In this document: positions 1 through 358 of the stretch, piece after piece
Layout: every line of letters begins with the position of its first letter
Position numbering within the stretch: position 1 is the first letter of the stretch
Origin: Escherichia coli
Lineage (GTDB): Bacteria > Pseudomonadota > Gammaproteobacteria > Enterobacterales > Enterobacteriaceae
Reading direction: 5' to 3' (one strand)
NCBI RefSeq assembly: GCF_003334385.1
Contig: NZ_QOWN01000192.1
DNA: 358 bases
Program-made: the position numbers and the translations under genes
The notes under the pieces: model-generated
What the model was told of the DNA's origin: nothing
The model's database searches: none
Seen by the model: the letters and a program-made list of their open reading frames with translations, nothing else

Positions 1-33
1 AAGGCGATGTTCAGGGGGATACTGCGAAAATGA
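1..33 (+). CDS. Possible 3' end of an upstream gene in frame 1 (...KAMFRGILRK*), ending at TGA 31-33 and overlapping the downstream ATG by 4 bp (ATGA)
   Basis: Frame 1 is open from position 1 to the TGA at 31-33. However 3 of its 10 codons are rare in enterobacteria (agg, ata, cga), whereas frame 3 over the same bases uses common codons. The alternative is that frame 3 is simply continuous from upstream of the window. Confidence 0.25.
   Translation, partial: KAMFRGILRK
13..19 (+). promoter_or_regulatory. Shine-Dalgarno-like ribosome-binding site (AGGGGGA) for the ATG at 30
   Basis: Purine-rich G run partially complementary to the 16S rRNA 3' end. Spacing to the ATG is 10 nt, slightly longer than optimal. 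The element also lies within in-frame codons (cag ggg gat) if the ORF extends upstream. Confidence 0.35.
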
Positions 34-358
34 CAGAGCGTGAACTGTCCATTATCCGTGCGCTGGGTGAAGAATTCGCTGCGGTGCTGGCGGATTTACA
101 GCGCACATTTGAGGGGAAAATAGCCGCGCAGGCACAAATGTTTGAAGAAAAACTGGCTTCCCTGTCTGTGGTATTACAGAAGTGCGTGACGGGCGATGAT
201 GTGCGTCCGATGCTTGAGCAGATGGTGAAGGAGGCTGTAAGCCATATTCCTGTTCCGCGTGATGGTCGTGACTACGATCCGGATGTTCTGCAGAAGGCGG
301 TGAATGATGCGGTCGCAAATATTCCGCAGCCAGCGGACGGTAAAAGTCTCACCCCGGA
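30..358 (+). CDS. Hypothetical protein, 5' end in window (ATG 30-32), 3' end truncated at the window edge; helical N-terminal region followed by a Pro/Asp/Gly repeat motif. It may instead be an internal part of a longer ORF, since the frame is open back to position 3.
   Basis: Frame 3 is the only + frame free of stops across the window (109 codons from the ATG to position 356). Codon usage is typical of enterobacteria (ctg, ccg, gcg, cgt, cag dominate). ATG at 30-32 lies 10 nt downstream of AGGGGGA (13-19). The other two + frames carry stops at 31-33, 41-43 and 121-123. Confidence 0.72.
   Translation, partial: MTERELSIIRALGEEFAAVLADLQRTFEGKIAAQAQMFEEKLASLSVVLQKCVTGDDVRPMLEQMVKEAVSHIPVPRDGRDYDPDVLQKAVNDAVANIPQPADGKSLTP
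234..350 (+). repeat. Intragenic coding repeat: two diverged copies of a 14-codon unit (234-275 and 309-350), 75 nt apart, encoding AVSHIPVPRDGRDY and AVANIPQPADGKSL
   Basis: Codon-by-codon alignment gct gta agc cat ATT CCt gtt CCg cgt GAt GGT cgt gac versus gcg gtc gca aat ATT CCg cag CCa gcg GAc GGT aaa agt. The shared nucleotide string ATATTCC occurs at 244-250 and 319-325. Conserved residues are A-V-x-x-I-P-x-P-x-D-G, with divergence at synonymous and variable positions. Confidence 0.45.

Follow-up and report, generated by a model that had tools for sequence, protein, structure and literature searches.

A portal-adjacent, fibre-like protein of Escherichia coli prophages and its N-terminal amphipathic helix

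Which protein begins directly behind the portal gene of a lambdoid prophage resembling Shiga toxin phages, and what might its long helical start be good for? The question is raised by a stretch of 358 nucleotides from Escherichia coli (assembly GCF_003334385.1, contig NZ_QOWN01000192.1), hereafter called the window, in which an open reading frame (ORF) starts at position 30 and is still open at the end. An initial annotation, made from the sequence letters, had described positions 30-185 as a segment rich in Ala, Glu, Gln and Leu that could form a coiled coil or helical bundle at the N-terminus of a fibrous or scaffold-like protein. We find that the segment is the N-terminal amphipathic helix of a phage fibre-like protein and that the start of its gene shares bases with the stop of an HK97-type portal gene. 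The reading we favour, with a probability only slightly above one half (about 0.55), is a separate virion structural protein, 300-570 aa long in close relatives and coupled to the portal gene, in which the helix would oligomerise, likely into a trimer, and anchor the fibre near the portal.

The N-terminal helix and its hydrophobic stripe

The translation of positions 30-358 begins MTERELSIIRALGEEFAAVLADLQRTFEGKIAAQAQMFEEKLASLSVVLQKC and is identical to the residues quoted earlier, except that the interval 30-185 comprises 52 codons while 51 residues had been listed; the 52nd is Cys. Ala, Glu, Gln and Leu make up 26 of the 51 residues (51%), so the richness in these four holds, with a binomial p of 0.0017 against a rough proteome expectation of 30%. 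The presence of only two Gly or Pro residues (p = 0.05) and the absence of Pro from the first 59 residues (p = 0.07) were judged against rough proteome frequencies as well. By itself the compositional signal is modest, that is, only moderately unusual. The Gly codons had been placed correctly at 66-68 (G13) and 114-116 (G29), and so had the first Pro codon at 207-209 (P60). Natural variants with Glu at residue 29 (G29E) occur, and Gly29 is therefore no obligatory break.

The structure was predicted with AlphaFold2 for a natural 299-aa variant, the first 84 residues of which are those of the window, using a family alignment of 115 sequences. The monomer model contains an uninterrupted helix from residue 3 to residue 50, with a predicted local distance difference test score (pLDDT) of 91, 96, 97, 96 and 82 in successive blocks (91-97 for residues 1-40 and 82 for residues 41-50). 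The helical character suggested by the initial annotation was thus borne out by prediction, at pLDDT 82-97. Of its "one or two amphipathic helices" the amphipathic helix stood, and the second helix did not, as a single long one was predicted. With no Pro before residue 60 and a helix predicted over residues 3-50, the segment is uninterrupted, as a coiled coil would need.

Hydrophobic residues had been said to recur every three to four positions. In the single sequence, hydrophobic power was elevated at periods of 3.6 (p = 0.024) and 3.67 (p = 0.033), and not at the heptad period of 3.5 (p = 0.26). Averaging of hydrophobicity over eight homologues at 19-37% identity, in an alignment with seven relatives, gave a Fourier peak at 3.64 residues (z = 7.6-7.9, p = 0.0002) against p = 0.036 at 3.5, two periods that are not fully resolvable over 48 residues. 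The recurrence is thereby confirmed as a stripe that is conserved in homologues. In the family alignment the conserved hydrophobic positions are 6, 9, 12, 16, 20, 23, 27, 31, 38, 42, 45 and 49; the series 16/27/38/49, 20/31/42 and 23/34/45 make an 11-residue pattern, to which position 34 fits weakly (mean hydrophobicity 0.2). Judged from the alignment, the stripe appears closer to an 11-residue (hendecad) repeat than to a classical heptad. The coiled coil of the initial annotation therefore fares unevenly: the helix is continuous, and the classical heptad signal is weak both alone and in the family. The segment does not qualify as a single alpha-helix (SAH) either, with its hydrophobic stripe conserved and Lys plus Arg amounting to just 6 of 51 residues.

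The best-conserved part of the segment within the subfamily is its beginning, residues 1-16. M1 and R4 do not vary among homologues with only 19-37% overall identity, and conservation reaches at least 90% at E3, E5, G13 and E14.

The portal-adjacent gene, its product and its family

The features of the window, all on the plus strand, are as follows.

Positions 1-33, plus strand: 3' end of the HK97-type portal gene, with its last 10 codons (KAMFRGILRK) and the TGA stop at 31-33, read directly in frame 1.
Positions 13-19, plus strand: AGGGGGA, a Shine-Dalgarno-like purine run that includes the tract of five G (G5) at 14-18, 11 nt upstream of the ATG (alignment).
Positions 30-33, plus strand: ATGA start/stop overlap, the ATG (30-32) belonging to the fibre-like ORF and the TGA (31-33) to the portal gene, an arrangement of the translational-coupling type.
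Positions 30-358, plus strand: 5' part of the portal-adjacent fibre-like ORF, 109 codons, open at the window end (PHROG 8767/1289 family).
Positions 30-77, plus strand: conserved N-terminal motif, residues 1-16 (M-T/N-E-R-E-L-S-I-I-R-A-L-G-E-E-F), a candidate docking motif (alignment).
Positions 36-179, plus strand: continuous amphipathic alpha-helix, residues 3-50 (AlphaFold2 and periodicity analysis).
Positions 195-356, plus strand: first copy of a 162-nt (54-aa) tandem repeat (Tandem Repeats Finder on phage BP-4795, equivalent position).

The fibre-like reading frame is real and under purifying selection, because the ratio of non-synonymous to synonymous polymorphism (pN/pS) over codons 1-55 is low, 0.41 in lineages where portal and fibre-like ORFs are split and 0.33 in lineages where they are fused, versus 0.84-1.13 in the two other sense-strand frames, which served as controls. 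An antisense ORF of 88 aa with a TTG start lies opposite the coding region on the minus strand (52-318). It was set aside as probably spurious, since among the three sense-strand frames purifying selection sits in the sense frame alone.

By megablast the window belongs to the late operon of E. coli phages and prophages that are lambdoid and long-tailed. DNA identity is 94.7% to the Shiga toxin 1 (Stx1) phage BP-4795, and the prophages of complete E. coli genomes reach up to 97.9%; the same search found no exact copy. Nothing essential differs between the window and these database copies. In BP-4795 the order is terminase small subunit, terminase large subunit, a 645-aa "major capsid protein", a small ORF, the portal gene ORF58 (454 aa) and ORF59 (461 aa), which is the counterpart of the window gene. 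Downstream follow a head-tail adaptor, a head closure protein, an HK97 gp10-like protein, the tail terminator and the major tail protein. ORF58 matches the portal model TIGR01537 (portal_HK97) at 4e-105 over residues 45-388, and the portal models altogether stop at residues 388-430 of the 454. Profile searches identified the 645-aa protein as an HK97-type fusion of prohead protease and major capsid protein (MCP). Such a fusion gene (approximately 645 aa; Peptidase_S78 plus Phage_capsid) precedes the portal gene from E. coli to Pseudomonas (BP-4795, L001 2520-4457; Serratia, L127 3619-5556; L129 1943-3946; L133 1512-3449). In HK97 itself the protease and capsid genes come after the portal gene, and the order seen here is unusual.

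The fibre-like gene lies directly 3' of the portal gene in eight of nine contexts compared, namely E. coli, Serratia marcescens, Pseudomonas phage PAJU2 and five of six metagenomic contigs. The 4-nt ATGA overlap recurs in BP-4795, Serratia, locus L133 and PAJU2, four metagenomic relatives have an 8-nt overlap of the form ATGnnTGA, and a purine-rich Shine-Dalgarno-like motif stands 7-12 nt upstream of the start at all nine junctions. Since overlap and adjacency are kept across these contexts, the conserved way of expressing the gene is by translational coupling to the portal gene, and the window has the canonical arrangement. In several distant relatives methyltransferase- or glycosyltransferase-like genes, unusual inside a structural operon, are inserted between the fibre-like gene and the neck genes (L125 8588-9163, L129 7691-9634 and L132 3390-3926; Methyltransf_24/TylF); a PAJU2 ORF of this kind is annotated as "alpha-2,3-sialyltransferase".

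Full-length relatives consist of the N-terminal segment of about 55 residues, two to seven tandem units of 54 residues, and a C-terminal domain of about 135 residues. On BP-4795, Tandem Repeats Finder reported a period of 162 with 4.6 copies and 95% matches, starting at the counterpart of window position 195. Each unit is made of two halves of approximately 27 residues, each a helix of 13-17 residues followed by a 12-residue loop, IPxPxDGxx; within the first repeat AlphaFold2 placed helices at residues 55-71 and 84-96. The window protein, like its family, has this 27/54-residue helix-loop repeat after the N-terminal helix. The array extends past the window (L001 6195-6946), with 95% identity between copies. 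Repeat number ranges from two to seven among otherwise near-identical prophages, giving protein lengths of 299, 353, 407, 461, 515 and 569 aa. A protein word-index search with the 109-aa window protein returned only fragments shorter than 200 aa, from assemblies with collapsed repeats; many database proteins are fragmentary because copy number varies and assemblies collapse the repeats.

The C-terminal domain lies beyond the window end; relatives with 96-99% identity across the 109 residues in common possess it. In the AlphaFold2 model of the 299-aa variant it is all-beta with a pLDDT of about 98. Pfam gave a weak CBM_5_12 match on the full-length ORF (E = 0.006), and Foldseek aligned the C-terminal modules with the chitin-binding domains 2d49 and 2rts at a root-mean-square deviation (rmsd) of 1.8-1.9 A over 46-47 columns (probability 1.0). 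Foldseek also matched fibre proteins of the Agrobacterium phages 7-7-1 and Milano, whole-model E-values being weak (1.5e-3 or higher). The best BFVD matches were phage proteins named "collagen triple helix repeat", CBM5/12 or tail fibre. Among 139 family representatives, drawn from the 150 best matches of the search described below, at least four consecutive G-X-Y triplets occur in 65 and at least six in 37, and the relative P0180 matches Pfam Collagen. No G-X-Y runs were found in the window protein or in BP-4795 ORF59, neither of which falls into the collagen-like class (PF01391).

With a helix, helix-loop repeats and a CBM5/12-like beta tip, and with collagen-like runs in relatives, the segment is the N-terminal region of a protein built like a fibre, in line with the initial annotation. 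Of the wording "fibrous or scaffold-like" the fibre-like half stands and the scaffold half falls. A scaffolding protein was rejected since the module already has an HK97-type protease-MCP fusion, and the repeats and the CBM-like tip do not fit one.

The window protein matches phrog_8767 (7.1e-68, residues 1-109), phrog_1289 (1.6e-37) and positions 455-563 of phrog_2271. An exhaustive HMMER search of representatives yielded 5544 cluster representatives at E ≤ 1e-3, the weaker of which may be inflated by repeats, and 649 at E ≤ 1e-30. Nearly all of the 150 best among the 5544 stand alone, are about 200-800 aa long and start with a helix-like region. Going by these profile matches, the window ORF is assigned to the PHROG 1289/8767 family (with PHROG 16748), as are PAJU2 gp07 and BP-4795 ORF59; these, together with the C-terminal half of PHROG 2271, are its direct homologues, with shared synteny and overlap. 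No portal domain was detected: NCBIfam gave no match for the window protein, Pfam on the full-length ORF gave no Phage_portal, and TIGR01537 covers residues 45-388 of the upstream protein only. Membership of the fibre-like ORF in the HK97-type portal family (TIGR01537/PF04860) is thereby refuted. PHROG 1289 (331 positions), a stand-alone family without a portal domain, is nevertheless labelled "portal protein", and PHROG 2271 (859 positions) spans both the portal and the fibre-like halves. The "portal" label of the stand-alone family seems to have spread from fused genes.

Several other matches were discarded. V-type ATPase subunit E (NCBIfam, 18.9 bits against a cutoff of 250) is a generic long-helix match; DUF4244 and TetR_C_35 (Pfam) had E-values of 0.03 or higher; and designed helical-repeat proteins, the sole PDB sequence matches (E ≥ 0.007), were judged compositional and not homologous. 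The PDB sequence search found no solved structure among sequence homologues.

Split and fused forms of the gene

Phages YYZ-2008, 2851 and vB_EcoS-705R7 are annotated with a single "portal" of about 860 aa. According to the alignment, the sole cause of this fused coding sequence (CDS) is a run of six G (G6) where the window has G5 at 14-18. G6 sets the downstream ORF in the portal frame, the junction reading ...FRGDTEKMTERELS..., and the helix then becomes internal, at about residues 455-505 of the approximately 860-aa protein. Exact-pattern scans of IMG/VR recovered 76 G5 and 41 G6 loci, and in most loci of both kinds the downstream ORF was intact. Over 787 flanking bases, 71 of 74 G5 loci had at least 10 differences from any G6 locus; one identical haplotype alone carried both states, which could be a sequencing error. 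Hypervariability of the G tract was mostly rejected, the states being largely lineage-specific. On a midpoint-rooted neighbour-joining tree, parsimony placed at least seven changes with G5 at the root, and relatives outside the E. coli group have no G homopolymer at the tract position. We conclude that the split form is ancestral and functional and that the fused form is recurrent and derived.

For the window the designation "N-terminal" is accordingly correct, the ORF being separate and the split arrangement lying at the tree root. The status depends on lineage, because G6 in about one third of E. coli relatives fuses the ORF to the portal. A further protein, P0185 (1237 aa), has the fibre-like part fused in frame to the portal separately from the E. 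coli G6 fusions, so that in-frame joining to the portal C-terminus has arisen independently at least twice. The NCBI Prokaryotic Genome Annotation Pipeline (PGAP) labels the G5 form "phage portal protein, frameshifted" because G6 relatives carry the fused CDS. For the split form this label is probably wrong.

The end of the portal gene has a second peculiarity. Its last sense codon, AAA, is preceded by A (A-AAA-UGA, window 27-33). At the equivalent site BP-4795 has six As (L001 6024-6033, AAAAAATGA), Serratia has T-TTA-AAA-TGA with a canonical X-XXY-YYZ slippery heptamer, U-UUA-AAA (L127 6994-7004), and PAJU2 has no comparable slippery site at the portal stop. A -1 slip at the portal stop would run directly into the ATG of the next gene and give a portal-fibre fusion. 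A frameshift-stimulating RNA structure found no support in window positions 19-110 (z = -1.4; 21 of 200 shuffles fold equally well).

It is conceivable, though we think it improbable, that the junction (G5/G6, A-AAA-UGA and an ATG one frame back) switches between two forms of one structure, by tract mutation or by low-level -1 slippage on GGGGG/AAAA. Some portal subunits would then carry a fused fibre, and the remaining free chains would join them by the N-terminal helix. If this were true, HK97-like siphophages would have a portal-tethered fibre or crown appendage of a kind not described before, and the helix of the fused form would be a linker or barrel beside the portal crown.

Proposed placement in the virion and meaning of the family

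A 48-residue helix with a hydrophobic stripe is unstable when free, and it must therefore pack on other helices or on a partner. In the favoured reading it would line up in parallel with its counterparts in other chains, three being the most likely number, through the one-residue-wide stripe with its pattern of about 11 residues and 3.64 residues per turn. The period of 3.64 suggests a nearly straight, hendecad-like bundle rather than a supercoiled heptad, and such a bundle could set the register of the stalk. Collagen helices are trimeric, and since relatives carry collagen-like segments, obligate trimers, the family is most likely trimeric; for the window protein this argument is one of homology, because the G-X-Y runs occur in relatives and not in the protein itself. 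The first 16 residues may be what attaches the fibre to the virion, at the portal vertex or close to it. The high conservation of these residues, the coupling to the portal gene and the two portal fusions suggest that the N-terminal end is the virion-proximal one. The stalk would be formed by the 54-residue helix-loop repeats, swapped for or interspersed with collagen-like G-X-Y runs in relatives, and the CBM-like C-terminal domain would be the distal tip, outside the particle.

Several observations weigh against this picture. In one of the nine contexts, metagenomic contig L126, the fibre-like gene lies five genes from the portal, just before a connector gene. Across the whole family it is the C-terminal domain that is conserved, 17 of its positions hardly varying, and the N-terminal region is not the same from one subfamily to another; the C-terminal domain could for this reason be the virion-binding end. 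The weak heptad signal does not favour an oligomerising helix. A linked trimer, modelled with AlphaFold2 as three copies joined by 40-residue Gly-Ser linkers, gave three full-length helices at pLDDT 70-89 and a predicted template modelling score (pTM) of 0.54; Foldseek found no significant fold matches for it, and the outcome is compatible with a trimer but uninformative. In the literature we found no virion proteomics, structure or characterisation of any family member, and publications on the PAJU2, Ab31 and ANT_H14 prophages held nothing on the fibre-like gene. In the known portals (SPP1, P22, T4, phi29) the C-terminus is in the crown, inside the capsid, so a covalent fusion would place the helix inside the head. 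Such a fusion suits a protein bound to the crown from within more than it suits an external fibre, and yet fused genes are common and show purifying selection. The contradiction might be resolved if translation also starts within the fused gene at the conserved ATG, if low-level slippage takes place on the G run, if the product is cleaved by proteolysis, or if the protein really is internal.

The fused genes also invite the reading that the window ORF is an internal part of an approximately 860-aa portal with a C-terminal extension, the window being a G6-to-G5 frameshift pseudogene and the helix a barrel-like continuation of the crown. The PGAP label, the three phages with fused CDSs, the G6 state of 41 of 117 IMG/VR loci, the extent of PHROG 2271 over both halves and the pN/pS of the fused lineages all agree with it. 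We regard it as very unlikely; a merely broken portal gene is the least likely of the readings. The split, the overlap and the Shine-Dalgarno-like motif are found together in Serratia, PAJU2 and five metagenomic relatives, all without a G tract, G5 sits at the parsimony root, and the portal models end before the portal ORF does. Moreover, nearly all of the best 150 of the 5544 representatives stand alone, split lineages retain an intact downstream ORF under purifying selection, and BP-4795, which was deposited as a complete phage genome, is of the split type. A head fibre or decoration on the capsid shell is a serious rival, although we consider it unlikely. Here the C-terminal domain would bind the capsid and the helix would be distal and trimerising, or the helix would dock on the major capsid protein, and the proximity to the portal would be a matter of gene order. 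The position within the head module, between the protease-MCP fusion gene and the connector genes, and the family-wide conservation of the C-terminal domain would suit such a protein, and collagen-like and helix-turn head fibres are known in SPP1 gp12 and phi29 gp8.5. The start/stop overlap with the portal gene, however, is kept over large evolutionary distances, the fusions to the portal C-terminus arose twice independently, and CBM5/12-like modules are typical of ligand-binding tips, not of capsid anchors.

An internal head protein, bound to the portal crown by its N-terminal helix in the manner of SPP1 gp7 or the T7 internal core, is another possible reading; it might be released through the tail at infection, with the CBM-like domain binding peptidoglycan. 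Fusion to the portal C-terminus, an end that faces the capsid interior in known portals, is tolerated in about one third of relatives, the gene directly follows the portal gene as SPP1 gene 7 does, and a thin, flexible helix-loop build could perhaps thread the channel. Collagen-like trimeric stalks and CBM5/12 tips nevertheless mark external fibres, and the repeat number is free to vary from two to seven in near-identical phages, as for exposed stalks. Profile searches did not find similarity to the gp7/Mu F family, and we hold an internal protein to be very unlikely. Very unlikely, too, is a helix that does not self-associate and that binds, as a lone amphipathic helix, to a groove in a partner protein, be it the portal clip, an adaptor or the capsid. 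The stripe period of 3.64 is that of an undistorted helix, not of a supercoiled heptad coiled coil, and the linked-trimer model brought no gain in confidence, both of which this reading would explain. A helix of 48 residues (about 70 A) is long for a groove-binding peptide, though, relatives with collagen-like segments must trimerise, and straight hendecad-type coiled coils are well known.

Among known systems, the proposed working of the portal-coupled fibre resembles that of T4 fibritin (wac), a trimeric helical neck-whisker fibre whose N-terminal part is anchored at the head-tail junction; by analogy, the window helix might be such an N-terminal anchoring and trimerising region. No sequence similarity to fibritin was detected, and fibritin differs in being a coiled coil throughout with a C-terminal foldon, where the window family has helix-loop repeats, a CBM-like tip and a weak heptad. 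The trimeric head fibre gp8.5 of phi29, with helix-turn repeats, and the collagen-like trimeric decoration gp12 of SPP1 are both placed on the capsid shell. They bear comparison with the helix-loop repeats of 27/54 residues described here and with the relatives' G-X-Y runs, but their genes are not known to be coupled to the portal gene, and neither the PDB sequence search nor Foldseek returned a match to either. The likeness to CBM5/12 domains (2d49, 2rts, ChiB) and to the fibres of phages 7-7-1 and Milano concerns the C-terminal modules outside the window, not the helix. The C-terminal barrel of the P22 portal and SPP1 gp7 are helical or accessory elements on the inner, C-terminal side of the portal. 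Their relevance is to the G6 fusion, where the portal C-terminus leads into the helix, and SPP1 gene 7 too comes directly after the portal gene; they share no sequence similarity with the window ORF, which is separate, and the repeats and the CBM-like tip have no counterpart there.

That a phage fibre-like protein begins with an amphipathic helix is a familiar design and ordinary in kind. The sequence itself is already in the databases, at up to 97.9% DNA identity, and we found no experimentally defined function for the family. The added value lies in the context, that is, in the conserved portal coupling, the recurrent G-tract fusion and a probable systematic misannotation. A very large family that goes under the names "portal protein" and "frameshifted portal pseudogene" is, most likely, a structural protein in its own right. 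In Table 1 of Asadulghani et al. (2009, PMC2669165) the portal function of the Sakai prophages Sp3, Sp6, Sp9 and Sp12 is scored "D". Mislabelling in annotations of Stx phages and E. coli affects which prophages of enterohaemorrhagic E. coli (EHEC) count as "defective". The coupling and the occasional fusion hint that the protein may form part of the portal vertex or neck, and the CBM-like tip on a stalk of variable length suggests an accessory adhesion module on medically relevant Stx-converting phages.

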